64,000 nt of DNA from Torpedo marmorata. Taxonomy: Eukaryota. The stretch spans positions 39,928,001-39,992,000 of the forward strand of contig OZ360230.1 in assembly GCA_977017645.1 (NCBI GenBank), read 5' to 3'. The translations under genes were made by a program, and so were the position numbers. The number at the start of each line of letters is the position of its first letter. The first letter of the stretch is position 1. A model generated the notes under the pieces. The model was not told the origin of the DNA, did not search any database, and saw only the letters and a program-made list of their open reading frames with translations. Below, piece by piece: positions 1,471-58,573 of this stretch.

Positions 1471-3220
1471 GAGGGATCTCCTTGTTTCTGAGCTCCAGAT
1501 TTCATGTACAATCTAAACAAAGTCTGTAAGATTGAATAACACAGCCCATCTTGGCAGTGCTGGAGACAAATCAGCGTTGCACAAGAATTCACGCAAATGG
1601 TGCAATGCAATGGACCAATTGCAAGAGATTGACATTGAAGGTTGACCTGCTGACCAGGGTATTAAAAATAAACTGGTAAGGAGCCCAATTTCTTTCCACT
1701 TCCCTCTTAAAAAATGGTACAGGAAAGTTCTTTGTGGAGATGTCACATTCGAATCTATGGTTTTGTACTGTGCCATGTCTCAAATCTGATAAACATATAA
1801 TCAATTACATGAAAACAGTTCAATGCTGCAGTAGAATGCACAGGAAGCAAGGCTGTTAATCCTTGGGGCTTTTTTTTGTGATTTTCTCAAAAACGTTGGT
1901 GGCCCAAAAGCGTAATCAACTCTGTGATCAGGCATTTGAGCTCAATTAATAGAAAAATAGTCTCAGAAAAAGATTAGATAGAGTCCATGGCAGAGTTGGT
2001 TCGGTTGCGATTTTTAAGTGTGTGAACAGCTAGGGCTGCCATGCAGGGGTCACATTTACTATTGAAAGGAAATTCACAGATTATTCACATTACTGATTGA
2101 AGTGGTCACTGGGTGGTTCACACTTGTGTAGGAACAGGAAGGCAGTTATTAGAGCCAATTGTTTTCCTGAATGCCATGATAACTGAGCAGCAAAGGAAAT
2201 ATCATAGTTTGGCCATTGTCCAGAAGCCTGCGGTTGGAGTGCATTTAGAACACTAAAAAGGAAGAGCTCTTGCAGTGATCTGACTTTATTTAAGATTTCA
2301 TTTATTCCTGATTTAGTGAGATGTTTTCCTCAATTCCTTGGGGTCTGTCAGAAGAGCATTCATTCCTGAGGCCTCTACAATTTCCACTCATTTACATGGG
2401 TGTACAAAAGCAGACTAAAATTATATTGTCATTTTTGGCTTTGAAATCCTACTCACAGATGATGAAATTCATCTCCTGTTGCAGGCACAATACAGTAATG
2501 TACATTTATTCAACCTCCCTCCTGAAACTCATTTCTGATTACTTCAATGCATATACTGCATTGCATATTTATCATATGTAACAGAGGTCAGATGTCTACC
2601 CTTTTTTCTACCATTTTCTAAATTACAACAAGCATTCTGGACATACTGGTGTCACATAAGGTGACATATTACTGCAATTCTACTGCTTTCTTTTAATTAC
2701 TATCTCCATTAACCTCAGTAAAACCTCCTTGGCTCTGAGCACAAACAACCTCAACTCTTCGCTTCCTCCTTGTTCCACCCATCTTGCTCCTTACTCTCTA
2801 TGGTCTCTCTATACCCTCCTTAGCCACGTTATAAGCAAATCCCCATTTTTTGTGAACTCTTCCTGCATCTCAGCTCCCTTTCAACTGTGGAATCACCTAT
2901 GGCCTTGTCTACTGACAAAATGAACTGTGGCCATTTCTTTGCATGGTTCTTCTACATCACAATTGGCTTTGGAAAAAGGTTTTCCTTACTTTAAATGGTG
3001 ATTTGAAAAACTTTTCTGTCTGGCTTCATTTATTCCATTCACCATGATAACTCTGCAGCCACTGGTCTCAACCATATTACCTCCGCTATCCGTAGCTCTG
3101 GTGCCAGTACACCAGTTAGAGAATAATTTTTAACAATCACTTCAGGACTAAAGAGCTTCTGAGATGATGAGAATGGGATGTTGAGCTCAAGTAGATGCTC
3201 AGCTTACATTTACGCAAGAA

Positions 3221-3361
3221 CAATACACGCAAGTGCTGGAGGAACTCAGCAGGTCTTGCATCCATGGAAAGCAATGGGTAAACAACGTTTCAGGTCTGAG
3301 CCCTTCATCAGGATTCATTGTGTATTGTTCCAGTTCTCCAGCACCTGCAGACTGCTTGTTT
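3221..3361. mobile_element. Penelope terminal-repeat mini-insertion with internal inversion and hammerhead motif
   Basis: Flanked by 13-bp direct repeat atttacgcaagaa (3208-3220 and 3362-3374); minus strand reads CTGATGAAGGGC-TCAG-ACCT-GAAACGTT. Confidence 0.8.
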
Positions 3362-3794
3362 ATTTACGCAAGAATCCATTTTAGTAAAGGATTTGGTAAG
3401 GTTAAACAATATGGAGAATTATGAGCAGTTTGATTGACAATTACATTGCTTTTTAAAGAGACAGCAGGGTATTTTGATGAACACTCAATCTATGACCCTC
3501 AAATTGAAGCCAGATGGCTGTGAGTAAGCAAGTGACCACTGAGGTTTTGAGCACCATTTAAAGGAATATTATCTTTTACTGTTCATTTGCTGCTGCAGAT
3601 TTAAAGATAATTTTCAAAACCCATTGGGAGATTTTATTGGTGAGAATTCATTAATATTTGGGGAATATTTATGTCTCTGAAAACTGCATCTAAAAGGAGA
3701 GGGTGCTGCAGTATGCAGGATTCACCAGGGAAAAGGAAATATTGGTCACTGGCATCTTGCTTGGAGTTCGTTTTGAGCTGCAAGAGGATTAGGA

Positions 3795-3902: not shown

Positions 3903-6237
3903 GATTAGGACGACATGAAGCCAGGCATAGCAAATCCAGCGACTGCTGGAGGATGGGTGGACTCTTTCCCATTGTGAGTAGAAACCATCCCTTCTCTGAC
4001 AACACCTTGACTACCTTGAGAGCGTGCTGACTCCCTCAGCCCCTGAGCCATTCTGGACAATACCACTGGATATTTTCTGTGCATGAACAACATGCTCATT
4101 AAAGCAATCCAGAGGATAACTGCCTCTAATTATGCAGAGATACCATGGAGGTATTGAAGGAGACAAAAATAAAATAGCTAAAGTTGACCTTGGCCAAGGG
4201 TCAAATACCTTTCTGATGTTCTAATTGGTGCATGTGCTAAATCTGTACGGGTTCGTTAAGCATTTGCAGGCAATTTTAAATTATTATCAGCCACTAAACT
4301 CAAAACTGTGCTAAATCCAAAGATTCTTGCTAGATCTGCACCATTTTCATCCTTTCAGCAAAATAACCTTCTTACGTTTGTCATAGCTGCTGACCCTAAT
4401 CATGCAGCTCCAGTCCTTGCTTCAAGAGGAAACTTCCAAGTTCTGCAGATTTGACTGTGGCTTGCGTAAAGCTGGCTTCACCATTCAATACAGGATCTAG
4501 CTGGATGAAGTGAAAACTAGTCGACTCGTAGTGTCAGCATTACCAACCATAAAATGTAACGTAGGACACAGATTGAAAACAAAACCTTCAGTTGCTGGTA
4601 TCTAGAGTAACTGACCATTTCTCTCCATGGACGCTGCCTGATCCGCTGCATCCCTCCAGCTTCTCATTGTTCATTTACTGTTTTTACACTCCAGTACCTC
4701 TATTACCAAGAGTCACTGTGGACCCTTTTGCTATCTTCCAGCTACTATGCTAAATAATAAAAGCTGCTCCATGATTGGTTAATAATTAAAAATGCTGAAA
4801 AGGTCACACCTTGCTGTCTCCAAAACAGCAAGTGCCTTGAAAGTCCTTACTTTGGCTAAGAAAGTGAATGGGCTTGTGGGAGATGGGATTCTGTATGGAT
4901 AGATTAAATTTTGGCCAGGTTTCCACGCACAAGAGAAATCCTTGCTCCATCTTAAGAGTTCAGCGTGGTACACTGAGTTTGTATAACTTATTTTGATGGT
5001 CCAGAGAGCAGCAGTGAAAATAATTCATTTTTTTAACAACATGCTTTTTCTTTCTTGGTTTAATTTGTGTTAAAGCTAGTGAATCTTGCCCAACATTTGG
5101 TAACTCCTGCCCACATTCACCCCTTAAAGCATCTTTTGAAAATATAACTGAGCAGTGGATGTGTGTTTGTTGCATGTTGATGGATTTTTTTGGGGAGGAA
5201 ATATTTGAAAGACATAAGGCAACACCCTTGCAGTGGACTGAACTGGTAGACATGGTTAAAACCCAGAGACATTTTCTTATATTTACAGGAAAAGATTGTT
5301 TTTGTGAATTTCTGGTTTACCTCATTATATTTTCTTTTCATATTGGAAAATATCCAACCCCCAATCTGGCCAAAAATAATACTAATTCAGCCCAAACTAA
5401 TAACAAATATTTCAAATACTTTATCCTTTTAGACTGATTTAGTAACATTCAGGAGAAAATTATCTAGATATTTAATATTGCAATTTTGAATGTCCCTCAT
5501 AATTATAGTGGTATTACACAAATAGGCCTCGGTTAAGCATCTCCTATCATATACTAAGAACTATGCATCAAAGGACCTTCACTGGCTGTGAGTATTTTGG
5601 GTAGTCCTGAGATTATGAAAGGTGCTATATAAATATAAATCTCCACTAATGCTGCTAATGTAGTTCAAATACGAGTGCACCTCAACACAATATTTTTTCC
5701 TTTATTTGAATAATGAAGCACACTCTGGTCATGCCGAACTGTGGCAGTTTCAGTTTAGAGTTAAGAACCTTCAACAATTCTGCAAATTGAGCTGCAACTT
5801 CAATCTCCAAAATATATCTTAACTGCTATAGAATGATTCCCCCATCAGGTAATTCCTGTGGCTCTCTGAACTTAAAGCAAATAACTTGTGGTAGAAATAA
5901 TAGTGAGGTTATCAGAATTTGATGACTTTCAAGCATAAATCAGACAGTAACATCCAATGAATGGTTTATGCAATGATTTGATAAATTCACTTTTGGGATT
6001 TGGACATCACTATCCTGGCCAGCATTTAATGCTTATCCTTAACTACCCTTGAGAAGTTAATGATGACTCTTCTTGAAATGCTGCAGTTGTTCTGGTGAAG
6101 GTACTCCCTCAGTGCTGTTGGGGAGGGAGTACAAAGGTTTAAACCCAATGGCAATATACTTCCAAATCAGGGTGGACCAGTGAGGGGCTCTGTGATTGCA
6201 GGACACACCGGCAGCGGGCTGTTGGTGACTCGAGGCA

Positions 6238-6360
6238 AATAATCTCCGGGGCCCTCCAGGCCACTGTCCCGGCGAACAACTTCTTGGTGCTCTTGTTGCT
6301 CAGCTCCTTATATACCCAAAGTCGGATATCTTCACCAGGTCTTCGGAGGTGATCAGCAGG
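6238..6360 (-). pseudogene. MAP3K12: Isolated MAP3K12 (DLK)-like kinase exon fragment (DFG to APE)
   Basis: LLITSEDLVKISDFG-[1-bp deletion]-KELSNKSTKKLFAGTVAWRAPEII versus DLK/LZK [41 protein letters not shown]; preceded by acceptor cctctccgcag. MAP3K13 is not excluded. Confidence 0.88.
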
Positions 6361-6394
6361 CTGCGGAGAGGATAGGGTCAGAAACGGAGACAGT

Positions 6395-6523
6395 TAAACA
6401 GGAAAGTCTGCAGATGGGGGGGTTGCAGTGCAATACACAAACATGCTGGAGAATTACAGCAGGTCATGCCGCATCTGTAGGAAGTAATGGGTAACCAACG
6501 TTTCGGGCCAGGACCCTTCATCA
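6395..6523 (-). mobile_element. Penelope terminal repeat with hammerhead motif
   Basis: Minus strand TTGATGAAGGGT-CCTG-GCCC-GAAACGTT followed by gacctgctg...ctccagca, as in other Penelope termini in the window. Confidence 0.8.
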
Positions 6524-6589
6524 ACATCTGCAGGTATTGCTCCTCCCATGTATCATCCACCCTTGTTATTCTTGCTGGCATTTGTGGAG

Positions 6590-6992
6590 CTGAGTTATAA
6601 GGAACAGTTGAATAGTTAGGACTTTATTCCGTGGAGGGTCAGAGAATGAGGAGAGATTTGATAGAAGTGTACAAAATTATGAGTGGTATGTACAGGGTAA
6701 ATGCAAGCAGGCTTTTTCTACTGAGACAACCAGAGGACATGGGTTTAGGGTGAAAGGTGGAATGTTTAAGGGTAACATTATGGGAACTTCTTCACTCAGA
6801 TGGCGGTGAGAGTGGGGAATGAGCTGCCAGTGGGGGTTGTGAATACAGGCTTGATTTTGACATTAAAGAGAAGTTTGAATAGGTATGTGGTATGATCCAG
6901 GTGCAGGTGAATGGGACTAGATGGACTAATAGTTTGGCACGGACCAGATAGGCTGAAGGGTCTGTTTCTATGCTGTAGTGTTCTATGGTTCT
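6590..6992 (+). mobile_element. CR1 (HER1-like) 3' fragment
   Basis: LGLYSVE..RGDLIEVYKIM motif, CR1 3' UTR and ttctatggttct tail. Confidence 0.8.
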
Positions 6993-12589: not shown

Positions 12590-14942
12590 TTCATGGAGGC
12601 GATCTGGGAACTGTGTGGGGCTATAGGCGAACTGCAGACCGCACACCCTGATGGACTGCTGATTATCGTTGGCGACTTCAACCAGGCAAACCTCAAGTCA
12701 GGGCTACCAAAATTCCATCAGTATGTAGACTTTGCTACGAGAGGGGCGAACGCGTTGGATCTTGTGTTCACGAACATTTCCGGCGCGTATCGGACGCAGC
12801 CCAGCCCCACCTCAGATACTCAGACCATATCTCAGTAATGCTAACCCCAGCATACAGACCGCTCGCCAGACGCTCCAGACCAGTTCGGAAGCAGGTTAAA
12901 ACCTGGCCAGCAGGTGCCATCCATGCACTTCAGGACTGCTTTGAGCGTACTGATTGGCACATGTTCAGGGAAGCAGCAACCGATGGCGACTGCATCAATC
13001 TGGAGGAGTATACGGCATCAGTGACTAGCTACATTAGCAAGTGTACTGACGAAGTCACTGTGCCCAAGACCATCATTACTCACTCTAATCAGAAGCCAGG
13101 GATGACTGCGGAGGTGCGTGTGCTGCTGAGGAGCCAAAACTCTGCCCTCAGTGCGGGCGACAAGGTAACCCTAGCTATTGCGAGCCAAGCTGTCTAAGGC
13201 CATCAGGGAGGCAAACCGTGCACATGCCCAGCGAATTCAGAGTCACTTTCAGGACAGTAAGGACACGCGACGCATGTGGAAGGGCATTCAAGATATCACC
13301 AACCACAAAACTACACCATCTGACTGTGCTGGTGATGCTTCCCTCCCAGATGCACTGAACAACTTCTACGCGCGTTTTGAGGCGAAAAATGATGTAGTGG
13401 CAAAGAAGACAACCCCTCCTCCAAATGATCAGGTGCTGTGTTTCACAGTGGCTGACGTGAGGAGAGTGTTAAGCAAGGTTAACCCACGGAAAGCTGCTGG
13501 TCCAGATAACATTCCCGGCAGAGTGCTCAGGGCATGTGCGGCCCAGCTGGCTGATGTTCTCACCGACATCTTTAACATCTCCCTGACCAGTGCCGTGGTA
13601 CCAACGTGCTTCAAAGCCACTACCATCATCCCCGTGCCAAAGAAGTCGACGGTGTCCTGCCTCAATGACTACCTCCCTGTCGCACTCACATCTACTGTCA
13701 TGAAGTGCTTCGAGAGGCTCGTCATGGGGCACATCAAGCTTCTGCTGCCCCCCTCACTGGACCCCCTGCAGTTCGCATATAGATCACACCACTCCACGGA
13801 TGATGCCATCATTACCACCCTCCACCTAGCCCTCACCCACCTGGAAAATAAGGACACGTATGTTCGAATGCTGTTTATTGACTTCAGCTCGGCATTCAAC
13901 ACGATCATACCTCAGTACCTGATAGGGAAGTTGAGCGGGCTGGGCCTAAACTACACCCTCTGTAATTGGATTCTAGACTTCCTGACGGGAAGACCTCAGG
14001 CAGTCCGGATTGGAAACAGCATTTCTAAGGTCATAACATTGGGCACGGGGGCTCCCCAGGGCTGTGTGCTTAGTCCATTGCTGTTCACCCTGCTGACTCA
14101 TGACTGTGCAGCAAAACACAACTCGAATCACATCATCAAGTTCGCTGATGATACGACCGTGGTGGGCCTTATCAGCAAGAATGATGAGTCAGCATACAGA
14201 GATGCAGTGCAGTCGCTAATGGAATGGTGCGGAGCCAACAACCTGCATCTGAATGTAAACAAAACAAAAGAGTTGGTTGTCGACTTCAGAAGGGCCCGGG
14301 GGGATCATTCTCCATTGACCATGGACGGCTCTACCGTTGAGGTCGTGAAGAGTACCAAGTTTTTTGGAGTGCACTTGGCGGAGAGTCTCAGCAGGTCCCT
14401 CAACACCAGTTCCATAGTCAAGAAAGCCCAGCAGCGTCTTTACTTCCTGCGAAGGCTGAGGAAAGTTCATCTTCCACCCCCTATCCTTACTACATTCCAC
14501 AGGGGATGTATTGAGAGTATTCTGAGCAATTGCATCACCGCTTGGTTTGGAAACTGTACCATCTCGGACCGAAAGACCCTGCAGAGGATAGTGGGGTCAG
14601 CGGATAAAAATATTGGTGTCTCTCTCCCCACCATGACGGACATCTACAACACACGATGCATGAGGAAGGCTAAAAACATTGTGAAAGACTTCTCACACCC
14701 CCTTGGTAAACTTTTTTCCCTTTTGCCATCTGGAAGGAGGTACTGAAGCACTCGGGCTCGTACGTCCAGACTGTGCAACAGTTTTTTCCCCCAAGCCATC
14801 AGGCTCCTCAATTCCTAGATATATATGTGTATTAGCATGTTATAGTTTTTTTTATTGTATTATTGGTCCTGGAGAAACGCTATCTCGTCTTACTGTGTAT
14901 ATGGTAATGAACGACAAATAAAGGTGACTTGACTTGACTTGA
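12590..14942 (+). mobile_element. Rex1/Babar non-LTR retrotransposon, 5'-truncated
   Basis: APE end ([10 protein letters not shown]), RT motifs [34 protein letters not shown] and KFADDTT; 3' aataaag(gtgactt)(gactt)n tail. Confidence 0.95.
13178..14746 (+). CDS. Rex1/Babar reverse transcriptase ORF (522 aa; frameshifted upstream, premature stop at its end)
   Basis: Open RT domain including FADD. Confidence 0.85.
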
Positions 14943-15224: not shown

Positions 15225-16544
15225 ACAGTTATTATTATGCAGAACTCCAGCAATGACACCAGTGCCCAAACTTGCTCAATGAAATGTGGAAGATACTTCA
15301 AAAATACGGTGGTCCTCCACACGTCATATGCCACAGTCTTCGCTGACGAACACGATCTTTACAATGTCATACACAAATTGCTGCTTTGTCCACTGACTTA
15401 CAGAACAAAAAACATTGAGGCTGTTGAATTAAAGAAGTAGATGTTTAACAATATAATAAATAATAATTACTATTAAACATGTTCTCTCATCAAGGATGAA
15501 TTTAATTAGTTTGAAGGTTTCAAATGAAAATAAATATTTACTTTTACTTACCTGCGGTGTCTGTCACTCTCTTTTAATCTCATCTTTCTCACTGGGTTTT
15601 TGTTTTCTTTGTGAACATCATTTTAACCAAATTTATATTTCCTGGGCCTCTGGATGATGGCGACAAGGAGAATACCTCCCTCTACCATCTTCCTTTTCCT
15701 ATAGTAGTCATGCTGTCATTGCATTATACCCTCTGGAGCACACCCTACCAGCCCCTCAAAGCCCAAACAACAGAAAGACCAACATCCTGAGCTCTGACAG
15801 CTGCATCATCTCATTCCATTATCAATTCTCTCCTGATTCACTCTTAAGGCAGCAAATTTTAAAATGTCACCATTTATAAATCCTTTCAGAGATTTCCCCA
15901 ATCTTCTTCAGCCCTGGATATGAACCAGTGTACAACTCTCTTACAAGAATGGGGGCCTTTGTATTTCTTCAAATGTTTCTATGACTTTTCAAACTTCCAA
16001 AATTCTTCTCTTTTAAATAAACTCTAAGTAATCCTCTCTAAATACTATAGTCAGCAGTAGTAAACCCCAGCCAGAGAGCTCAAGGCTGCTTCGCTCTTAA
16101 CATGTTCACTGAAGGAAAATACTACATGAAATTGTTTCAAAAGCCTTCTCATAAATGGAAATAATTCCCATTTAGCACCTAATAGGTTAAAATATTGTCA
16201 GATCAATTTTATTTTGTGGAGCAAATTCCCATCCCATTTTATACTTTGTATAAATTTAAAGCATATGTTTCATGTGTTAAATAAGGCTCTGGGTTTTGCT
16301 TATAGTTTCCTTGTTTGTTTTGAGTATCAAAGCTAATGTATCATTAAGTGCTTAACTCGAGCAATGCATGCTATATTGACACATTTTATTACTACAGTGT
16401 ACCATCATTAATTCCTAATATGAATGTTGTACAGCCTGAAGGGTGTTGAGTACAACCTAAAAAGTCATTTCACGTTCTCCACCATTCTGCCTTGGAGAAT
16501 TTTGGAAATTCTTTTCAATATCCAATTTTTCTTGTATTATAGTA

Positions 16545-18125
16545 CACAAAAAAAGGTGGAGGAACTCAGCAGGTTTCGCAGCGTCCATAAGAGGTAAAGA
16601 CATTTAACCAACGTTTCGGGTCTGAGCCCCTCTTCAAGGTATGAGCAAAAAGCAGGCAGGCGCCTGAATAAAAAGGCTGGGGGAGAAGCATAGGCCAACA
16701 GACAAAAGGTGATAAATTGGACATAGATAGGAGGACAAGAGAGGAAAGGTAAGAATTGATCAGGAGAGGGGTGTGGCTCTGTGAGCTGGAGGAAAGGAGA
16801 CAGATGGAGAGGGAGGGAATGAGAGGGGAGAGAGCTATAGAAAAGAAGACATATGGATAGGGAAAGAGAGAGATGTTGGGAGGGGGGGGGGTGCTAACAG
16901 AAACCAGAGAAGTCGATGTCAATGCCTTCCAGTTGGAGGGCGCCCAGATGGAACATGAAGTGTTGTTCCTCCAATTTGCAGGTGGTCTCAGTCTGGCTGT
17001 GCATGAGACCATGGACAGACATATCGGCATGGGAATGGGGTGAGGAATTGAAATGGGTTTCCATTGGAAGATCCCCGCTATTGCGGCAGACAGATCGAAG
17101 GTACTCAGTAAAGTGATCTCCCAGTCTGTGTCTAGTCCCTCTGATGCAGAGGAGACCACAACGGGAGCACCAGATCAGCAAATACAGATTCACAAGTGAA
17201 GTGTTCCTTCACCTGGAAGGTTCACCCAGGGCTCTGAACGGTGGTGAGCAAGGACGTGTGTGTGCAAGTGTAGCACTTCCTGCAGTCACAGGGGTAGGTA
17301 CAAAGGGGGCAATTAGTGGGAAAAGGTGAGTGGACAAGGGCGTCATGGAGGGAGCGGACCCTGCATAACACGGAGAAGGGAGGAGAGGGGAAAATGCGTT
17401 TGGCAGGGGACCACACTGTAGGTGGCGGAGGATGATATGTTGGATGCAGAGGCTGGTGGGGCAGCAGGCAAGGACAAGGGGAACTCTTCCCCCATTGTGC
17501 CTGGGGTCAGAGGTGGCCAGGGCAGATGTGTGGGTAATGGAGGATGTGCAGGTGAGGGCCAAGTTGATGGTAGGAGAGGGAAAGTCACGTTTTTTTGAAG
17601 GAGGACATCTCAGGTGATCTCGCATGGAAGACTTCATCCTGAGAGCAGACACGGCAGAAATGGAGGAACTGCAAAAAAGGAACGGAATCCCTACAGGAGA
17701 CAGGGAGTGAAGATGTGTAGTCGAGTAGCTGTGGGAGTTGGTGGGCTTGTAGAAAATATCTGTCGAGAGTTTGTCTCCTGAGATGGAGACAGAGATCGAG
17801 AAAGGGGAGAGTGTTGCTAGAGATGAACCGAGTGAATTTGAGGTCAGGGAGGAAGTTGGCAGCAAAATGGATAAAGTGGACAAGCTCATCATGGGTGCAT
17901 GAGGCAGCACCAATGTAGTCGTCAATGAAGAGGAGGGTGAGTTGAGGAGCCTTGCCTGTGTAGGTTTGTAGCATGGCTCCACATAGCTAACCAAAAGGCA
18001 GACATAGCTGCGACCCATGTGGGTACCCATGGCTACCCCTTTGACTTGGAGAAAGTGAGTCAAAGGAGAAGTTATTGAGGGTGAGGACAAGTTCTGCCAG
18101 CAAGAGGAGGGTGGTGATGGTGGGT
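16545..18125 (-). mobile_element. Penelope-like element: degenerate RT, GIY-YIG endonuclease and terminal repeat
   Basis: GVAMGTHMG and FIDDYIG RT motifs; C..CGLL..GTR..LGDHFTEYLRS..HFN..H..EQH endonuclease; hammerhead-like motif at about 16610-16640. Confidence 0.92.
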
Positions 18126-19489
18126 CTTTTGTCGAGGATAAGTAGTATTATCACTGCTTTCACATTTATGGAACTAGATCTTTTTCTTTTCTTTCAATAG
18201 ATTCCAGTCTCACATTTTTGAATGGTTCACTATTTTTTTTTTAACCCGTATTCCTTTTCTTTTTAAGAAAGTTTCATTATTAAAGTCTGCGTCCATGTGT
18301 AGTGAGAACAGTTGGGTTGAAAATTGTGCAGCCTGCTTTTCTGCACATTCTGAGAACAAACCTCAATTTTTCAGACCAATCTCGGCAAAGCAGGCAAAGA
18401 TCATTATCGTCATAGGACAGCAGTAGATAAGAGTCTGCTTTAAGTTTGCTTCCAAATTCAAGCAAAATGTAAAATCACCTTAAGGCACCCACTGACCTTC
18501 AAATGACCAGTGTCTGCCAAATAGTTGCAGCATTGAAAGAGCAGCTGTAGAAGAGATTCATCAAAACAAAGCAACTCTGACAGAGAACCATAACTCAATT
18601 ACTCTTAGCTGGAAATCTCCCACAGTTGAGTAAAGGAGCAAATAAAGGTGCACAGGACACACACATTCTTCAGTTCATGGTTGTATTATCACTGCATTCT
18701 CTATGACAGCACAATTTCAAAGATCAGTTACAGAAGATTTAGCACTTTTCGTATTATAAAATCTCATTGTATAACAGAACAATTTAGTGCTCTGCACCTC
18801 TATTTTCATATTACAGCTCAAATTCACAAAGCCACTCATCAAACTTCATTCTTCTTAAGTAATAACTTAAAGAACGAGTTGCTGTGAGACAAATGGAAAA
18901 GACTTTTGAGAATCCTTTTTATTACTATCCCATGAATAAGGATTGCAGTTAGCTTGATGTGCCTTGTCTTTAACCAAGGCAGTGTGTTAAAAATGTAATA
19001 TCAATCTGTTTCCCATCATGTAACATCTGCACAAGAGGACATACTGTAACTATTTAATTTGAAATGTTAAAGAGTCTGAGAAATGAGCAAACATAAAGGG
19101 CCCTTGGGTGTCCAAAGCTGTCTGGGAGGAAAGTGCAACATTTCCAGCTTTCAACGTGTTTTACTTGGGTTCAAACTTTTAATCTCCAAGATATGGACAA
19201 GCAAATATTTCTGACATAGTTTTCGGAGCCACCATTTTGTATAATGAGAAGCTTTGCCATGTTAAAATGTCCAAATATTGCACGAGAACAAGATTAAGGC
19301 TATTTCAACTTGATTTCAAATTCAGCTGCTATTTATCAAGAGCCTTCTGTCTCAGGACAGAAATTTGAAGGGTAGTTCTGCAAGTAAGCATGAAAATGTA
19401 TCTAGGACGAGTAATGAAAATATATTTCACATTGGGCAAAATGAATGCCAAATATTAGACATATTCTTCACTCTCTTAGTTGTACTTGC

Positions 19490-20240: not shown

Positions 20241-20641
20241 AATCTAACATGTGACTCGAAACCCACGGATGCATCTTTCAACTAACTCCTCAGTTCAGGA
20301 GCAATTAGAAATGGATAATAAATGTTAGTGATAAAAGTTTAAATGTTCTTGTAATAACTAATTACAAGAACCCAATAACTCTCCCTTTCCATCCAGTGAT
20401 AATTAAGATACTGGATTGTTATTAAAAACCTATCTGGTTCATTAATGTCCTTCAGAGGAAAAAATCTGCCATTATTACTCAGGCTGTGATTCCCAATTGC
20501 TAACTCGTGATAGAGCACTCTGTTTCAAGGGTAAATAGGGATGGGGGAAAAAAAGTGCTGGTCCTGCTTGTGCATCGTCATTACATGAATGAATAAAACG
20601 TTTGTAAAATTATGCATTACCTGCAAGACATAAGCCATAAG

Positions 20642-20925
20642 TAAACACGAAAATCTGTAGACACCATGGTTGAAGTAAAAAACACAAAAGCTGGAGAACT
20701 CAGCAGGTCAAACAGTGTCTTTTATGTAGCAAAGGTAGAAATACATAATCAACGTTTCGGGCTTGAGCCCTTCATCAAAGTATGAGAAAATGCCGGCAGG
20801 CGTCCGAACAAAGGAGTGAGGGGGGAAGGGGGGTGGCAAAGGCAGGAGATGATAGGTGGAGAAAGGAGGGAGGGGACAGCAGCAAAGAGGGGGAGGAGGG
20901 ATGGCTGGGTGGGTGGAAAAAAAAA
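20642..20925 (-). mobile_element. Solo Penelope terminal repeat with hammerhead motif
   Basis: Near-identical to the reverse complement of about 56030-56310. Confidence 0.9.
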
Positions 20926-28204: not shown

Positions 28205-28369
28205 TGTCGTGTCCTGCATTAATTTAGTCACTTCTTAGTTGAACAGTTAGCATACTTTATTTTCAAACAAGATGCTGCACACATAAACTGAAGCGCGCCC
28301 TTACCGCGTCGCTTACGTAATCCCGTCACCTGCGTAACTTGCGTGATGACATAACGCGTTCCCATAACA
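28205..28369 (-). repeat. 3' LTR, with PPT (ggggggaagag on minus strand) at 28370-28380
   Basis: Direct repeat of 32324-32485. Confidence 0.95.
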
Positions 28370-28530
28370 CTCTTCCCCCCAAAATACTAGTACATAGATA
28401 ATAAGTCTAACTAAGTTAACTTAACTAAATTTCGTGTTTATATATATATATATATAAAAATATATCCATCCTTGTGATTCTACCGAAACTTATCTAACCC
28501 TAACTTATCTAATTATATTTCACCCCCTTC

Positions 28531-31500
28531 TTATGTCTTTAAATCACTGCACATATCCTTAAGATGTGCTGGGGGGTGTCTTTCTCTCTGGGATCTCCTT
28601 GGGAGTGGAGAACACCGAACAGGGGTACGAGTTTCTGACCTTTCCGGAGCAGCTAATTTCTCCTCGTTCCTTGCTTTCTGGGATCTCCTCGGGAGTGGAG
28701 AACACTGAACAGGGGAACGAGTTTCCGACCTTTCCGGAGCAGCTAATTTCTCCTCATTCCTTGGCACAACGGTTTGTCTCTCGGATGCTTAGCCAGCCCC
28801 TTGCCCTGGCGCAGCCTCCCCTGCTGGTATATCCATAACCAGTACCGGGGCTTTCTAAGGGGTCGCAAAATCTGGCTGTGTCCAAACAGGAAAGTCTTAG
28901 AGCTCTTCTGGGGCTGATTTGAAACTGTAGTCTTCGATTGCTCTTAGCTGGTCTATGTGTCTTTTCCATATGTTGTCCCCGACCAGTACAGAATATGAGC
29001 ATGGGCTTAGTTTTTTTTAAGAGCACGCCTCTTACCCAAGTCTCTTTATTTTGCCTGTAGTCTCTTACGAGTACTGGTTCCCCAATCTCCAAAGATCTGG
29101 TTGGTTTGTTTGGTGATGTTGATTGTTGGATGCGGAGTCCGATATTTGGGTGTACTGCAGTAAGTCGTGTTCTTAAGTTGAGTCCAAACATCAGTTCTGC
29201 TGGCGATGTGAATCCTATGCCATGGTTGTGACGGCCATTTCCATGGATTGGCTTCTGCTTGAGGTGCCTTCGGTTACATTTCTTGACAGATGTGGCACCT
29301 CGGTACCAACTGTTCAATGTCCCTATCAATTTCTGGCCACCAGACGTGCATACGTGCCAGCGCCTTCATCCGCACCATTCCGGGATGACTGGTGTGGAGC
29401 TCCTGTAGCAAAGCCTCCTGCCATTTTTTTGGAATGATCGTTCTTGTCCCCCACAACAGGCAACCCTCTTCAATGGATATTTCATTTCGCCTTGTGTAAA
29501 ACGGCCTCAGTTCGGGGGTGATGCTCTCGGCGTCTGGCCACCCATTCAAGGTGAGGTACATAACTTTTAACAATGTAGCCTCCTTTCTTACTTCTTGGCT
29601 GATGGACTTAGATGTGATTGGTAATTGACGCAGTTGTTCTTGGTTGATAGCCGTGGCTTCTGACGTCCAATTGATATTCCTTTCCATCTGTTCTGTCGTC
29701 GGCAGGGTAAGTGTGATAATGCGTCCGCATGGCCGTTCTTGTCCGCAGAGCGATGTTTTTTTATCATAATCATACGCCGCAAGCTCCATCGCCCACCTTT
29801 GGATTCTTGCCGCCGCTAATACTGGGATACCTTTCTTCGGTCCTAAAATTAAACTCAGTGGTTTGTTATCTGTTACCAAAGTGAACTTTCTACCGTATAA
29901 GTATTGGTGAAATCGTTTAAGACCAAATATAATGGCCAGTCCTTCCTTTTCTATTTGTGCACAATTTAATTCGCAGGCCGTTAAGGAGCGGGACGCATAT
30001 GCCACTGGCTGTTCCCCTTTTTCTGTGGTTTGTGATAACACTGCCCCCAGGCCAACTGGTGAAGCATCGACAGCTAAGGTCACTTCTTTATCTGGCTCAT
30101 AGTGGATAAGAACATTATCACTTGAGGTCAATAGTTCCTTCAACCGATTAAAAACCTTGTCCGTTTCATTATTCCAGCACCATTTATGATCTTTCTTTAA
30201 TAATTGGTTTAGCGGGCTGCAAGGGGTAGACATGTTAGAAATGTGCTTTCGATAATGATTAACCAACCCCAAGAACGATTGCAACTTCGCTCGGTTTGAT
30301 GGGCAGGGAGCACTGCGAACGGCTTCGGTGCCCGCTGTATCCATTCTGACCTCTTTGTGGTCAATCGTGAACCTCAAATATGTTACTGAGGGCGCCATAA
30401 AGACACACTTTTCTTGATGCAGTCGAACTTTAGCCTGTTCTAACCTGGCTAGTACCTTTTCCAGGGTTGTTAGGTGTTCTGCGTCGTCCTGACCCATAAT
30501 GATAATGTCGTCTCAGTAACATCCAACATTTATTCCTTGTAATAATTTATCCATCACTGACTGAAATATCCCTGGTGCTGATGATATCCCATATGGCATT
30601 TTGGTATACGTAAACAATCCTAGGTGGGTGTTGATAGCCCCATATTTTTTTTGATTCCAGATTAAGTCTAATTTAGTGAACTTTTTTCCCCCATTCAGGG
30701 CTTGAAATAGTTCCTCCGCTCTTGGAATTGTATGTCCGGGCACTTGCAGGGCTTGGTTTATTGTGACCTTGTAATCGCCACAAATTCTTATTTCGCCGCT
30801 GGGTTTTCTGACCGGTATGATAGGAGCAGCCCAGTCACTAATTGAAGTTTCTCGATTATTCCTTCCGCTTCTAGTCTATTCAGTTCGGTCTCAATTCCCC
30901 TCTTTATCGCAAAAGGTACTGGCCTTGGTTTAAAAAACTTAGGTTTTGCTTCAGGTTTTACTTGTAATTTGACTTGGACTTCCCAGGCTCTTTCCAAACA
31001 CGGATTGATACTTCTGAAACACTTGTTGTAACTTTGATTTCTCGTCATCCACTGTTTGTACCTTCTTCATGGCCCAAATTTCCTTCCAATCTAGTGGAAT
31101 GTGTGCCAACCAATTTCTTCCCAACAATGCAGGTCCTTTCGTCCCTACAATATAGAGAGATAGTCCTTTCTTTGAACTTCCTTTAAACAATGTCGGACTG
31201 TTTTATGTCAAGCTTTGGCAGTAGCTTTTCTTTCAGATTTTTTGACATTAAGGACACAGCAGCCCCAGTGTCGAGTTCCATGTGGACCGGTTCATTATTG
31301 ATTTTCATTCGAACAAGAATTTCCGACATGCGATTACTTACACTGCAGATATAATGTACTGACACTGTTCCTTCTTCTTCGGAGTTACTTTGGTATTCTG
31401 GCTCACTTTCTTCATCTCCCCTAAAGTTTTTAACTTTGGAAGATCGTTTCTTATACTTCAATGGCGGGGTTTTCATCCTCCTGTGGTTCTCTTTCTTTTC

Positions 31501-32176
31501 GTTCCATCCTGGGCACCTTGTCTTGGTGTGCCCCACCTTATCACATAAGAAACATTTAGCATTTTTGAAAAAACAGTTATTAGGGCTGTGGTTGTTCCTC
31601 CCACATCGGAAACATTCTCGTCAGTCCATTTTCTTGACCACGTGCTTCCCCTGTATAATCTCGGTATTATGTTGGGTCATTTCGAAACTCAATGCTATGT
31701 CATAGGCGTACTTGATATCTAATTCCTTTGCACTTAACAATCTTTATTGGGCCTGACCGTTCGCTAACCCGATCACCAATTATGTCTCTCAATGCTTCAT
31801 CCAAAAAGGTACCAAAATTAAATGTTTCGGACAGCTTACGCAGTTCAGCCAGATATTGGCTAACTGTTTCCCCAGATTTTTGCTTTCTGGTGTAAAATTT
31901 AAATCTTTCGGCGATTACTGACGGTTTTGGTGATAGATGTTCTCCAACCAGGTCACACAATTCCTTATAAGACTTGGAATTTGGTTTTTGTGGTGCCACT
32001 AAAGTCTTGATCAGACTATATGTTCTGCTTCCCACTTCACTTAAAAACAATGCCAGTTTTTTCTTATGGATCTCAGTATCACTCACATCATGGGCCATAC
32101 AGTACATGTCAAATCTATCCACATAATCAAGCCAGTCTTCGGTCTCCTTATACTCTCCAAAACGTCCTTCTGCCAT
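28531..32176 (-). pseudogene. Disrupted gag-pol of the Gypsy element
   Basis: ORFs 31700-32176 (Gag), 31183-31536 (protease), 30513-30743 and 29274-30497 (RT/RNase H/integrase zinc finger); several frameshifts. Confidence 0.93.
28588..28763 (-). repeat. 90-bp (30-codon) tandem duplication at the pol C-terminus
   Basis: NEEKLAAPERSETRxPVxCSPLPRRSQ occurs twice. Confidence 0.85.
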
Positions 32177-32307
32177 TTTTTATTGCTGCTGAATTCTTTT
32201 TTTCCTCCTGCTGTCTTTTGACGTTAATTTTGACGAAATTCCCTTAACTCCTGATTTCTTTTTAGCTGAAACCCTGTAGATTCCGTCGTCCAGAGTTCGG
32301 ATTTTTT

Positions 32308-32320
32308 ATCCTCGTCGCCA
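32308..32320 (-). other. Primer-binding site complementary to the tRNA-Ser(GCU) 3' end
   Basis: TGGCGACGAGGAT, 3 nt inside the 5' LTR. Confidence 0.8.
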
Positions 32321-32323
32321 GTC

Positions 32324-32485
32324 TGTCGTGTCCGCATTAATTTAGTCACTACTTTGTTGAACAGTTAGCACACTTTATTTTCAAGCAAGTTGATGCACAT
32401 AAACTGAACCGTGCCCTTACCGCGTCGCTTACGTAATCCCGTCACCCGCGTAACTTGCGTGATGATGTAACGCGTTCCCATAACA
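32324..32485 (-). repeat. 5' LTR
   Basis: Direct repeat of 28205-28369 with several substitutions and indels. Confidence 0.95.
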
Positions 32486-34152
32486 GGGTTAAGGCAATTG
32501 AGACCTTTGTTAACAGCATAGGAGAAAAATCAATATACAACTCAGCTCCCATTTTCAACTTAAAACCAATTCATTCTTAACCACCAATTTAAATAAATCC
32601 CCAAATTTTGCTAATTTTCATACATTTTGGTGACGATATATTACAATTATGAAAAGCAAGTTATGTCAGTTTGCAAATTCAACATTTCAGAATAAAACTG
32701 GCCAAAAATGTTACAACCATTTTTGCATCCAAATATTTTCTATTGTATAGTTTATTTTGTTGAGTTCAAGATTGGCAATTGTTCTGAAAATTCCTTCACT
32801 CAAACCACTGAGAAAGCATTGTGGCTAAAGGTAGCTAGAACTTTCACTCACATTTTCCCCCCGTCCTATTTTTCTATTGGGTTGATTTTATTAAGTAATG
32901 AAAATTAGGAGTGCAGAAACTTTGAAAGATAACACTGGAATGAAAGAGTTTAACCAGGGTCAAGAGTCTTTTAGCAGCCAAATCAGGTTGTGTCATTTCA
33001 ATAATCTAATTACACATAATTATAGTACTCAGGAAGGAAATCAAATTAAATGGCAGTCAGATGCAATTTCTCAGGATGAGCCAAGGCAGTGCATTTATTA
33101 GTTTGCATTTCGACGGACACCTGATAACCATTATGTTCTTCTGTTGCAACTATTTTTTCAATGTACAAACTGTCAAATGCAATAGAAAATTGAGGATAAA
33201 ACACAAGACGACATTTCTATCAGGCCAAATCACAAACATGTTGAGTTCTGCTTATTTTGAACAAATGCTCTTCTTCCCACCACAACTTTACAACAGCTTT
33301 GAAACAGCAACGGATGAAAGAGATAGTCAAAAGGCTGGCTATATAACAGTCATTGAAAAATGATCTGGAAAGAGAACAGCCAGTAAGAACCAATGTGTAA
33401 AATGACCCTTCTGAAGTCAGTGGTACTATTTGAACACTAGGAGCTGAACCATAAATCAGGAATAAAATGTGCCTGCAATGAATGACAAGATCTTAAGATT
33501 ATGACCCTTTAAGACTTCAAAACATCAAGAATTACATTTAACATTCAGTCTTATCAAAAAGTGGCTAGAATGAAGTATGAAGTGTGCAATTGTAGTTTAA
33601 CTGCATCAGACAGCTTATATGCTGCCAGGGTGGGTACAGGAACTTTATGAGAACATTTGTAAAATGCTGGCCAATGTCTTCTGGAGTCACATCCATGTAG
33701 TGAAACACAGAGGTTAAAATTTTACATCACCATCCACTGGAAGTGAATTTAAAGATTCAGAGCAAAATCCGTTCTACTTCTCCTCGAGATACTTCATTTT
33801 ACCCAACTACAGTACATGGGTTGTAGTAGGGTATATACAAGTCATACAAGTTTGTTTAATGTAATGTGTACCAAGATGCAGTGATAACGGCTGTTTTACA
33901 AGCAGACCAGTTGACATCTCATATATACCGTATATTTCGGCGTATAAGTCGACCCCCTTTTTTTAAGCCTCATTTTAATGGTTTTATTGTACATCCGGCG
34001 TATAAGTCGACCCCCAATTTTCGGACTGTCCGGGCCTCCCAGCAACAACCCAAAATTTGTTACAACACCCCAATCACCAAGTAACAAAGCTGTAAATTAA
34101 GCAAGTAAGTTAAAAATAAAGTAAAAAAAAACCTTTGCTTCTGGCCGGGAAG

Positions 34153-34308
34153 ATGCCAAACGGAGCTGGGTCCAAGTCTTCAGCTTCGGCTGCAGCCAGA
34201 GTCGGCGACGGGCCACTCCATTCTCCACATCGGGTGCGGTGCCACCCACATCGAAGAAGTCGCCTCGCTGCCCAAGTGTGCTCTGTGCAGGAACCACGGC
34301 ATGTGTCG
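34153..34308 (+). pseudogene. DMRT1: Captured DMRT1-like exon-1 fragment (start codon to first half of the DM domain)
   Basis: With single-base indels reads MPNGAGSKSSASAAARVGDG/TPFSTSGAVPPTSKKSP(R)/LPKCALCRNHG/VS; vertebrate DMRT1 is MPN...SKKSPRLPKCARCRNHGY(V/A)S. Confidence 0.85.
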
Positions 34309-34575
34309 GCTCCCAGGTAGGAGCGGCGACCTCCTTCTCTCGGGCAGGAGCGGCGACCTCGTTCTCCCGGGCAGGAGCGGCGACCTCATTCTCTCGGCAG
34401 GAGCAGGAACCTCGGCCTCCGTGGCAGAAGCGGTGACCTTGGCTGACGTGGCAGGAGCGGCGACCTCGTTCTCCCAGCAGGTCGGGAATGGACTCGGACT
34501 ATGTGGCAGGAGCGGGAACCTCACCCTACCGGCCAGGAGCCTCGGCTTACCGGGTAGGAGCGGGGACCTCGGGCT
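34309..34575 (+). repeat. GC-rich minisatellite of about 24 bp
   Basis: About 9 units resembling ggcaggagcggcgacctcnttctc. Confidence 0.85.
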
Positions 34576-34844
34576 CTACAATTGTAGAATGTCTGGGTGG
34601 TTTATGGCAGCGCCCAGCGGTGGGGAGGTGCTTCCAGGGTCGACCTATACGCCGAATTGGTTTTTCATGGGTCGACTTATATGCCGAATCGGGTTTTCAA
34701 GGGTCGACATACGCCGAATCAGCGTGGAGAGGTTTTTGAGCTGATTTTAAGGTCTCCAAAGTATATCCGGTGTATAAGTCGACTCCTGTTTTTTGAGAGA
34801 TTTTTGAGGGTTTCAAGACTCGACTTATACGCCAAAATATACGG

Positions 34845-35150
34845 TAATACATTTAGATACAATACAGAAGTGGAATGTTTCAGAGAGATCAGTTGGTACA
34901 GAACAAAGGCAGTGCAATTTTACTATTTTCAAGTTCATTCAGGAGTCTGCTAACAGCCAGAAAGAAACTGTCTTTGAATCCGGTGAAACAGTGAATCTGG
35001 TGGTGCTTGATATCATACTCATAAATCTACTTGATGAGTGCGGGGTGAAGAAAGCGTGGCCGTGGTGGGATAGGTCTTTTAATACGTTGGCTGCTTTTCC
35101 AAGGATTTGGGAGTTTTTAGATGGACGGCAATGTTAATTTGTGTGTGATC
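34845..35150 (-). mobile_element. Degenerate Rex/Babar-type 3' fragment (tail at about 33840-33925), interrupted by the pogo MITE
   Basis: KAANVLKDLSHHGHAFF motif on the minus strand. Confidence 0.55.
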
Positions 35151-41107: not shown

Positions 41108-41949
41108 CAGTAAAACCCCTGGTATCCGGCACCTATGGGGATTGGTAGATGCTGGATAAGTGTATTTTCTGGTTGCTTGAGACTTACTCTTACAATGCCT
41201 AACTAAAACCTGTCCTCTGCCTCATGACCCACTGATTTCTGCTCACTAGACAAGTCTAATATACGGATGTAGTGATGAATCTGCTAAGCCAGCCATTTGA
41301 AAAAGAACACTGTGCCTCAATATTCATCTTCTCGTAGAACTCCTTTCCTTTTTGTTGCAACATGGGCTCTGATATGCAACCACCTTCAGACATTTTCATA
41401 CTAAACCATTCAAAAAGAGCCTGGTCAAATAAGTCCATTTTGGAGGTATGAAGAGTGTGACGTCACTCAACACTTTTATCAGTGTCGGAATTCATATAAA
41501 ACTGATTGAGACTGGCCCTTAATGTCGCAGATGGTTGATTTGTCAACATTAAATTCCTCTATAACCACTGTACGACTTTCACCTTTTTCCAGTCTCTTAC
41601 ACATCTCCATCTTCTGCTTAAGGGTAATCACTACATGTTTACGCCTGCCTGGTTGTTTTTCTTTTGGCATGGCAACGGTTAGTGGGGAAATTTGTCCAAA
41701 ATAATGTCCTGTGAAATGGAATCTGTTTGTTTACATTGTTCACAAGGCGGGAACTGGTTGCAGGTGTCGCCTGGTGCGCGAGTGGTGGATTGGCGAACTA
41801 ACGCCAAGGCGCGCCAATTTTAAACTTGCGTATTTTTACCTATTATTTTATTCTTATTTATTTCATTTTTTATTTATTTTCCTCAATTTTTTTTGTCAGT
41901 TGCTTGAAGCTGCCGGTTGCTAGAATTCCGGATACCAGAGGCTTTACTC
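41108..41949 (-). mobile_element. Internally deleted Tigger (Jerky/TIGD-like) transposon
   Basis: TA-flanked cagtaaaaccc TIRs; RKHVVITLKQKMEM (CENP-B N-terminal HTH) and LFEWF..FSNGWLSRF (HTH_Tnp_Tc5-like); no DDE domain. Confidence 0.9.
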
Positions 41950-45950: not shown

Positions 45951-47214
45951 GATTACCTACATACTGCTTCAAGAAATCCTCATGGATACACTTAACAACT
46001 TAAACCCGAACTAAGGAACTCCCCGTCAATATTGGGGACATTAAGGTCATCCATTACCACCACTCTGTTGCTTTTACATCTTTCCATAATCTGCCTACTT
46101 ATCTGTTCCTCTATCACCTGCTAGCTATTCGAAGGCATACAGTATAACCCCAAAATAATGATGGGGTTACCCACATCACCTCAGTGGATGAGTGCTCCAG
46201 CAGCTCTTTGCTAAGTGCAGATGGGACATTCTCTCGGCTCAGTGATGAAACTTACTCCACTTTTTTTATATCTCTATCACATCTAAATCCTGGAACACTG
46301 AGCTGTCAGTCCTGCCTCTCTCAACCAAGTATCTATAATGGCCACATTACTTGTGATTCTCAATATCACTCCGAATGCTCCCTCTGTACAATAAGTAGTC
46401 ATGGGCTAAGGATTCTATGAAGTCAGCAGGGATTTTGCTTTTTTTTTTAAATGGATGCTTTGAGCATCAAACTTGATTTTTTTTTCTTTTCCCTGTGACA
46501 AGGCTCAGAATAGAGTGTCACTTTCTGGATTCAGGAATTTGAAAGCTGTAGTCTGTCCAACAGAGCTGACCTGGCACTCAATACAGGGGGAAAACAAGCT
46601 GCTGGAGGAACTCAGCAGGTCAGGCATTATCTGCAGAGGTAAAGAGGTGGTTCATGTTTTGGATCGACATGCAGTAAGTCCTGATACAGGGTCTCGAACC
46701 ATAATGCCAACCATCCCTTCACCTCCACAAATGCTGCCTGATCCATTGAGTTCCTCCAGCAGTTCATTTTTTTGCTCCAGATTTCATCATCTGCAGTCTC
46801 TTGTGTCTCAATACTGGGAATATTGCCCTGGGACACAATTCTGCCATTGGTTCGCTTCGTCCTTCCGGTGAATTTGGAGGATGTTGCAGAGAGCATTGAT
46901 TATATTTTTCTTGTGCGTTTAGTTCCCTGCAGTTGTTAGCCCAGATCCAAGAGGCAAATAGATGGGAAGAGATCACAGTACATCATGAGTATGCACCAGG
47001 TCTGAGGTCTTAACTTTCACATGCTCTTTTCATCAATTGACCTAAAATTAGCCTTGTGGATTGAAGGCGATGGTAAAGCTTGGTATTGGTGTCTGCATTC
47101 ACGCAATGCAATAAGCAGTGCTTTTTAAAAAAAAACAGGGAATCATTGTCAGTTGTCAAAATGCCTCTGTGAAAGATGAACTGACAGAGGGTTTGGATAG
47201 TTGATCTAATAGAC

Positions 47215-52690: not shown

Positions 52691-52731
52691 GATTTTGAAA
52701 TTACTTTCATTTTTATATAAATTTATATTAA

Positions 52732-53537
52732 AAAATGGCGGCACTGCTGGAGCTGCTGAAACGGCAGTGCTGCTGCTGGTGCGGACCCATGGAGAGCAGG
52801 GAGCGGAGATGCAGCGCTCCCGCGGGGTCCAACAGCCCAGTTCGACTGTCGTCAGCTCCGTACAGGCTTTGAACGGCCCATAAAAGGAGCCGACAGTAGT
52901 TTTATTTAAAAACCCGCGATCGCGGGGTCTGGATCTAAGATGGCGGCGCCTATGATCGGCAGCAGCCACGAGGGGTTGCAGACTCCAGGGAACGGAGGAC
53001 TGGCGCAGGGCACCAAAAAACGGGGAGACCAACCCCCGTCTGAGAAGGAGAAGCAGAGGAGACCACAGCGGCGGACCAGTGCGGGGATGGTGACCACTGC
53101 GGCTGAAGGACCCACAGAGGCAGCCTCGAGGCGAGGAACCCACAGAGGCTGCGGGCTGCTGGATACTGTGGTCAATGGACTCATACCAGGCTGCGGACTG
53201 GTTCGAAATTGGCTGAAGGAGTACCAGGTATCGGAACCGGGATGTGAGAGAGTGCCGAGGGCATTGAAGGGATCCTAATGGTATCGGAGGTTCGAATCTG
53301 GAGCTCGGGTTGCCGACGGTTTGGACTGGACTCTGTGTGGCTGCGGGAGCGCTGGAGGCGAATCCACGGACACTCGGTGACTCTGGGGGAACTCTCTTTT
53401 GCTTCTCTTTCTCTGACTGTAAGAGGCGCTTCAGGCAATTTCTGCCGATGGCGAATCTGTCTGCCTTACAGCAGGCAAAGCAATTTCATGTAATATGACA
53501 CTGTTTTTATTACATGACAATAAATTGAATCTTGAAA
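52732..53537 (+). mobile_element. CpG-rich non-coding retroelement with Rex/Babar-like tail
   Basis: GC island in AT-rich DNA; two (A/G)ATGGCGGC YY1-like motifs; ends gcaatttcatgtaa..catgacaataaattgaatcttga. Confidence 0.65.
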
Positions 53538-55010: not shown

Positions 55011-55244
55011 AATTATAGGTTTGGGTTTCAGGTTAACAGATATAACTGTAACCTTTCAGGCATGAAGACTGATTATTGGGATAAATACAAAGAATTAGAT
55101 ACATAATATCAGCTGATTAATTTCTGATACTGTATCAATTTAACATGTCAAATTTCAAAGGATCGTAGAAGTGCCAGAAACAGCACAAGGTGTACCTGAA
55201 AACAATATGCCAATTAGGATAAATGTTTACACATGTTAAATGTT

Positions 55245-57918: not shown

Positions 57919-58573
57919 AAAAGAGCAGATGTGGCCATGAATGTAGGAAACACACTCTGCCACGGGCATCATACAGTCAGTAGAGTGATGTTAAAATCAT
58001 AACTGGCATTTCATTTTTGACTGAGCAAGTATTACTGGCATCCATGGGATCTCTGGAAAAGAATGCACCAAAAAAAAACCTTTGGGAATCTGCACTCATG
58101 ACATAGTCATGACTCAATATGATCACAGGCTGCTGCTGTCAGTAATGAATCCATTACAGAAAAAGAATGTTTGAAAGACAATATTTTATGGCCTTTAACA
58201 CAATTAATCTTTAATACAAATCATGTTTTATTTGGTCCCAATTCCACTAGAGAACTTAAATCTCCCTTGTATGGTCCCTATTAAACTACCATGGAGATCA
58301 TAGTAGGAAACAGACCACGTTGTTAATTACTTTAAAACAAGTAACAAAATATCCTAGATGGTTAATCTTCTGGAGATAAATAGTCAATGCACATTTTTAT
58401 TTCAAAATTTACAAAAGTGAGCATGGAAATGCTAAAATAAACATTTGGAAAAATAATCAAACTTACTTTCATAGTGGCTTAACATCTCAAAATGCTACTC
58501 AAACTCACAACATATATTTGTGTTAAAATACAATTACACCAATTGATCAAAGAAGAAGAAATCATCTTAAATA

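Follow-up and report, generated by a model that had tools for sequence, protein, structure and literature searches.

A truncated MAP3K12 kinase exon joined to a Penelope terminus within an old repeat: a possible one-off templated insertion

The window analyzed here is a single 64-kb stretch of the Torpedo marmorata genome, in which a short insert at 6177-6523 lies between two tracts of repeated DNA. The G+C content of the insert (54.2%) exceeds that of the left flank (43.5% for 5993-6176), the right flank (45.9% for 6524-6584) and the window as a whole (40.3%), in keeping with the initial annotation, which had described a GC-rich insert of ~350 bp. Read along the minus strand, the order is old repeat, a hammerhead core at 6524, a Penelope terminal repeat running to 6392, a 31-base intron piece ending with CAG, and a kinase exon starting at 6360. 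The terminus, intron end and exon of the layout proposed earlier are thus all present, while two of its features, a cut in the middle of the exon and a further repeat at 6204-6236, had been overlooked. Contig depths and sequence differences given below refer to three sequencing runs (X1, X2 and X3) compared with the window at 80% likeness; X1, which we guess to be a DNA run and which comes from a near-identical organism, was read to 92% and X3 to 55%.

The left flank (5993..6176, minus strand) is an old, moderately repeated LINE-like element with a summed contig depth of 55-1,900 in X1, as compared with 8.55 over 5900-5992; the label LINE and the strand are our assumption. No second copy of this element occurs within the 64-kb window, the frame of the left flank produced no usable match in the ESM Atlas, and an exact-pattern scan for the flanking repeat gave 0 matches in metagenome, viral and prokaryote contigs, as expected for animal DNA. 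The right flank (6525..6584, minus strand) is also an old repeated element (depth of bin 6551-6581, 215 in X1 and 107 in X3) and probably represents the upstream continuation of the left one. The insert had been described as splitting one old LINE; contig depth upholds the repeated nature of each flank, and that the two are halves of a single LINE is what we presume. The neighboring 3' fragment of a very abundant LINE (6585..6990, plus strand; X1 depth >200,000), which we take to be CR1-like, is a separate insertion with several further copies in the window.

The kinase segment (6238..6360, minus strand) was recognized by protein and DNA comparison as a 3'-truncated, frameshifted exon of MAP3K12 (DLK) covering the DFG to APE region, as had been annotated. 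A phmmer search of PDB chains with 28 residues of the window (6229-6312, minus strand) placed human MAP3K12 on top (E 1.9e-6), the next family being MAP3K9 (E 0.33). In a tblastn comparison of 121 full-length MAP3K12/13 proteins with the window, two linked stretches, 6362-6315 (75%) and 6309-6238 (79%), were obtained, with E values of about 4e-9 to 8e-9 and a shift of frame from one to the other (122 matches in each of the two frames, all at 6238-6362), placing the frameshift near 6312. The ends of the exon are fixed by a genomic exon-plus-intron peptide (P0004), which begins at the same residue as the window exon and runs for 53 residues to VDIW before passing into intron; hence, the true exon start is present in the window along with 39-41 of 53 codons, and the donor and the final 12 codons are missing. 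The other of the two matches of the representative search (P0003) was a repetitive chance match and was dropped, and a word-based protein search with the 40-aa piece of the window returned one candidate, with none scored. An exact-pattern scan of metagenome contigs for the exon gave 0 matches, again as expected for animal DNA.

The assignment of the exon to MAP3K12, rather than to its relative MAP3K13, is supported by the residues preceding KISDFG, where the LITSEDLVK of the window follows the MAP3K12-type pattern LIT..D(L/M/V)VK, unlike the MAP3K13-type LVTH.D(A/T)VK. The agreement with MAP3K12 proteins (75%, against 62.5% for the sole protein named MAP3K13 in the fetched set, a thin comparison) points in the same direction. 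Neither the best 120 of 1,461 matches nor the best 120 of 1,502 included a protein named as a cartilaginous-fish MAP3K12. With the 121 query proteins, tblastn detected no other MAP3K12/13 exon in the 64 kb (nothing elsewhere better than E 0.055), so that the order of neighboring kinase exons expected of a duplicated or decayed gene is absent from the window. Likewise, no kinase family was found in 299 of 299 frames of at least 62 aa, a scan insensitive enough to have missed the exon fragment as well.

The intron end retained next to the exon (6361..6391, minus strand) comprises a CTGAC resembling a branch point (by a consensus that we assume), a pyrimidine tract and the CAG acceptor. The tract includes 24 pyrimidines in the 30 bases before CAG (binomial p 7e-4), such a tract plus AG occurs at 51 of 127,934 window positions, and the position of CAG coincides with the start of P0004. 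The retention of the acceptor together with its tract indicates an unspliced source, as the initial annotation had argued, and not a processed mRNA. In fact, the segment departs from a processed pseudogene, having kept the acceptor and tract and lacking poly(A), as well as from a functional gene, with its frame broken, the donor and 12 codons lost, and no neighboring exon. The exon copy is dead, with no likely function.

The other part of the insert (6392..6524, minus strand) is a 5'-truncated Penelope-like terminus consisting of a minimal hammerhead core (6524-6497), a terminal repeat and a 35-base tail (6427-6392). All four sibling termini in the window, at 3310, 16636, 20777 (-) and 56171 (+), match it with 73-93 identities over 126-129 columns, and a GIY-YIG domain (PF01541, E 1.2e-4) precedes the sibling at 56171; the Penelope terminal repeat read earlier from the sequence alone was thereby confirmed. 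Loose ends of relatives cluster at two points, 6427 (120 contigs in X1, 110 in X3 and 9 in X2) and 6392 (164 in X1 and 141 in X3). A tail of 30-40 bases has been described for Penelope-type elements (PMC8557442), and in the anole Poseidon element the tail is reported to lie between two reverse-transcription start sites (PMC11167929). The 35-base gap between the loose-end peaks at 6427 and 6392 matches such a tail, so that the copy ends at the normal 3' end of the family. On the 3' side of the exon no terminus is present, the nearest others being those at 3310 and 16636. The 30 bases past the Penelope end of the insert have 57% G+C compared with 33-40% for two siblings.

The hammerhead of the insert has the core boxes and a helix II closed by GGG/CCC. 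On the other hand, its helix I, for which the published model gives 4-5 bp along with a C3-G8 (or U3-A8) pair (PMC4209133), amounts at best to one Watson-Crick pair, as compared with 3-4 in the four siblings, and its 5' arm is missing; position 3 is a U opposite G8, as in three of the four siblings. Judged from the incomplete helix I, the hammerhead of the insert would not be a working ribozyme. Thus, the insert indeed starts at a hammerhead core, as annotated, although the ribozyme is incomplete, and the insert edge falls 28 bases upstream of the cut site (about 6496) inferred from the published model. At gathering score, Rfam gave 0 matches in the whole 64 kb. Compared with Penelope/Poseidon termini as described in PMC4209133, PMC11167929 and PMC8557442, the insert copy shares the core motifs, helix II, the 5' truncation, two 3' end points 35 bases apart and the GIY-YIG domain in a sibling copy; it differs in the lost 5' arm of helix I and the U3 opposite G8.

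Penelope sequences recur elsewhere in the window. Longer remnants with hammerhead-bearing ends are found at 16537-18147 (minus strand) and 55223-56310 (plus strand), the latter including the GIY-YIG domain, and a Penelope end at 20640-20921 is 92-93% alike to the 55223-56310 remnant. A short Penelope end at 3220-3365 is preceded by an inverted tail piece, and a fold-back pair at 46591-46770 is similar to it.

Beyond the exon, the insert is completed by 27+33 foreign bases at one junction, a 27-base junction stretch (6177..6203) and a unit from the interior of another GC-rich repeat, unrelated and of high copy number (6204..6236, plus strand), recognized from contig depths in X1-X3. The depth of bin 6210-6240 is 12,759 in X1, 1,222 in X2 and 17,171 in X3, and three X3 contigs jump back from 6234-6238 to 6204, which identifies tandem units; the scrap is an internal piece without element ends, on the strand opposite to that of the exon and the Penelope terminus. 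The insert is therefore composite, with a third unrelated repeat joined beyond the exon. A reading of the stretch 6237-6200 as what is left of the following kinase exon was rejected, as tblastn stops short of it and it belongs to the high-copy repeat. A GC-rich element with tandem subunits lies at 52730-53530 (plus strand). An X2 loose end resembles this element at 53.1 kb, and its family may be the source of the scrap at 6204-6236, the direct alignment score of 39 against 40 for the best of 300 shuffles being borderline.

At the junction, minus-strand poly(A) and AATAAA are both absent. The longest repeat common to the two junction zones is 6 bases, namely the hexamer TGCAGG at 6197-6202, which recurs at 6529-6534, 5 bases off the junction. 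Among size-matched random pairs from the window, 14% share a repeat of at least 6 bases, and the hexamer is a weak candidate for a target-site duplication, at chance level.

The comparison of the exon with the sequencing runs rests on X1, as X2 and X3 have no cover over 6241-6364. The insert is present in X1, as seen from the left flank up to 6235 (333 letters with 4 differences and 3 gaps relative to the window), the exon copy at 6237-6354 (3 differences in 118 bases) and the right junction at 6424-6667 (3 differences); no single X1 contig covers it entirely. Since X1 is slightly different from the window and yet has the insert, the latter is at least as old as their split. A second X1 exon contig carries 9 listed differences from the window plus an inferred one-base length difference. 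Four of the nine cluster at the frameshift (6310-6314), where the end distances imply one extra base in the second contig; at 6297, 6281 and 6278 this contig has D, M and S as in normal MAP3K12 (the 6281 difference being private to the window), and two more changes are silent. This second, intact-looking version, about 9-10% from the window exon and similar to it up to about 6244, we infer to be the parent exon. No third version over the exon core was present in the 92% of X1 that was read. The existence of only two versions, one of them intact-looking, argues for a one-off dead copy, and for neither a decayed gene nor an amplified family. Together with the lack of a further kinase exon in the window, it bears out the earlier description of the segment as relocated.

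Both X1 exon contigs end at 6354, and the depths of 8.61 and 8.56 in two bins fit one further contig of depth 8.6 extending from 6325 to at least 6364. From these averages it would seem that the sequence common to copy and parent extends into the acceptor, although other splits also fit, if less well. From 6392 onwards, the parent is masked by thousands of repeat contigs. An X1 contig starting at 6424, 30 bases ahead of the window-private change at 6454, points to a 31-mer in common with another sequence; this 31-mer could come from any of thousands of family copies and was not counted as evidence of the parent. As for an empty site, none of the 15 joints listed (of 20) links about 6177-6203 to about 6525; an X3 joint of 6040 with 6392 was set aside, having only 23 letters on one side, and record 9 of X2 matches 5932-6151, followed by 15 unmatched letters.

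The initial annotation had left a choice between 3' transduction and a templated repair of DNA. We tentatively favor the latter, at somewhat less than an even chance, in the form of a non-functional insertion that arose once, its template being a map3k12 intron with a Penelope end already in place (this and the other likelihoods expressed here are judgements, none of them computed). In such a course of events, a normal Penelope insertion into the map3k12 intron would have come first, about 31 bases upstream of the DFG-exon acceptor. A germ-line break within the old repeat elsewhere would then have been patched with about 285 bases of the map3k12 locus, using as template either DNA or unspliced pre-mRNA, with one end of the copied stretch within the exon and the other within the Penelope terminus, and a 33-60 base scrap of another repeat would have been added at one side, so that the Penelope end is a putative passenger. 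The subsequent decay is directly seen in the frameshift and conserved-residue changes of the copy and in the persistence of an intact version. This repair option fits well with the lone exon in 64 kb, the mid-exon cut, the kept acceptor, the composite junction, the absence of poly(A) and the absence of a convincing target-site duplication. Transduction was not established, given the normal Penelope 3' end, the exon cut mid-way and the attached third repeat; for the anole Poseidon element it is reported that reverse transcription starts internally and that additional 3' RNA leaves the main product unaltered (PMC11167929). On the other hand, with 5 termini in 64 kb, a random 300-base fragment would include a terminus in only about 2.3% of cases, whereas the Penelope-driven rivals predict one always. 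Also against the repair patch are the 57% G+C beyond the Penelope end, a poor fit to an AT-rich target, the common orientation of exon and Penelope, as transduction requires, and the fact that the terminus shows no sign of a greater age than that of the exon copy (listed differences, 10 from other copies over 133 bases for the terminus vs 9 over 111 for the exon, a weak hint).

A precedent for such repair is provided by the human class 2 templated insertions (TSIPs; Onozawa and Aplan 2016, PMC5110952), described as having intronic donors and a length of 73-414 bp in cell lines, without target-site duplication or poly(A). The insert resembles them, as far as that account describes them, in being a short copy of a distant locus with an intact donor, an intronic donor being allowed, in the absence of poly(A) and, apparently, in the lack of a clear target-site duplication and the added bases at a junction. 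Among these features, an intact donor (the second X1 version), a donor outside the 64 kb and the lack of a poly(A) tail or signal were verified. In contrast to the class 2 cases, the insert is old, common to a related genome and not polymorphic, and it includes a Penelope end.

Penelope-driven transduction, the other half of the initial proposal, we consider unlikely. Here, an unspliced RNA reaching from the intronic terminus into the exon would be copied by the Penelope enzyme from its downstream 3' end, or else an antisense RNA would be used from the hammerhead side. The terminus, intron and exon do run in one direction, the insert edge falls on the hammerhead core, and the terminus and the exon copy seem to be of similar age, in weak agreement with a joint move. 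However, the edge lies upstream of, and not at, the inferred ribozyme cut, the third repeat demands an extra step, and no more cargo copies were seen over the exon core in the 92% of X1 that was read. A 6-base repeat does bracket the insert, although, as noted, at chance level and off the junction. With respect to the enzyme, a faint in vitro product was 'likely' primed at the RNA 3' end, but the main product begins inside the terminus (PMC11167929). The closest known case is that of rotifer Penelope elements that moved an intron-containing gene, for which an antisense template was proposed (2013, PMC3846280), and the insert is alike in having unspliced host sequence beside a Penelope terminal repeat at a new site. 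The rotifer cargo, as described there, comprises an entire gene flanked on both sides by direct terminal repeats; its target-site duplication is 8 bp long and its empty site is proven. The insert, in contrast, has one upstream terminus, a partial exon and at most the candidate duplication discussed above. The failure of the two-repeat feature makes a rotifer-type event less likely, even though the enzyme may still have acted. Compared with L1-type 3' transduction (PMC6431247, PMC5110952), the order of 5' element and 3' host flank and the length of <1 kb are alike, while the insert has neither a poly(A) signal or tail nor a clear target-site duplication, and its element is not a poly(A)-primed LINE. 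The repair patch and Penelope transduction jointly predict a parent with a Penelope end, an outcome that we regard as probable.

The opposite prediction, a parent intron that never had a Penelope end, is made by a capture of filler, in which Penelope would cut the old repeat, repair would add scraps (first the repeat, then map3k12) and the reverse transcriptase would start at its normal internal site. A single event of this kind would account for the 3' end exactly as is normal in the family, the loss of the 5' part, the joining of several pieces at one junction and the similar ages, and it is compatible with the reported ability of the enzyme to do without homology between the primer DNA and the RNA start site (PMC11167929). 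Yet it requires two distant templates within one event and a target of 44-46% G+C, which is not AT-rich, and under it the neat survival of an acceptor with its tract and branch-point motif directly adjoining the Penelope end would be a coincidence; we regard it as about as unlikely as transduction. Still further down is a sequence of independent steps, very doubtful in our judgement, with the gene fragment arriving first and a Penelope end landing later at its edge: Penelope ends are common (5 in 64 kb) and a further LINE fragment did insert just 60 bases away, but the chance of landing within 35 bases of a given point is about 0.3%, and all of the upstream intron would have to be lost. Finally, a decayed gene or segmental duplication of map3k12 would explain a genomic-type exon with its acceptor, but is most improbable given that the 121 MAP3K12/13 proteins match 6238-6362 only (rest of the window, E 0.055 or worse), that the insensitive scan of 299/299 frames gave no kinase family, and that the exon is cut in the middle and, at about 9-10%, diverges too little from the intact version for an ancient paralogue.

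The insert can serve as a test case, as three mechanisms make differing predictions for one map3k12 intron. The wider question is whether the abundant Penelope elements move vertebrate host exons together with working splice acceptors. A literature search by title and abstract, with a coverage largely outside subscription journals, revealed no Penelope transduction of a vertebrate host exon, and in a review (PMC6431247) the rotifer work alone is named for the mobilization of host sequence by Penelope. If true, Penelope transduction would provide a vertebrate case with one terminus, and fish genomes rich in Penelope would be expected to contain hundreds of gene scraps with retained introns.

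With respect to host genes, none of the 299 frames of at least 62 aa in the whole window had a convincing host-gene domain, in a scan that would miss small exons, and weak tblastn matches (E 0.04 or worse), located at 42.9-43.1 kb and 57.2-57.4 kb, were discarded as noise. Other mobile elements also lie in the window, whose repeat landscape resembles that of a cartilaginous fish. A decayed Gypsy-type LTR retrotransposon at 28216-32485 (minus strand) has gag, protease, RT, RNase H and integrase zinc domains between terminal repeats that are 91-94% alike. A LINE reverse-transcriptase remnant at 12652-14746 (plus strand) has a 523-aa open frame (RVT_1, E 1.5e-27), and a coiled-coil frame with a weak L1 ORF1-like domain (PF17490, E 0.004) at 50025-51220 (minus strand) probably derives from the 5' portion of an L1-like element. 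Pogo/Tigger-type transposase remnants (BrkDBD, HTH_Tnp_Tc5, DDE_1 and CENP-B_N) occupy 58500-60480 and 41259-41730, with related terminal pieces at 33955-34846, and a fragment of a DDE_Tnp_4 transposase (E 1.1e-7) is found at 62872-63069 (plus strand).
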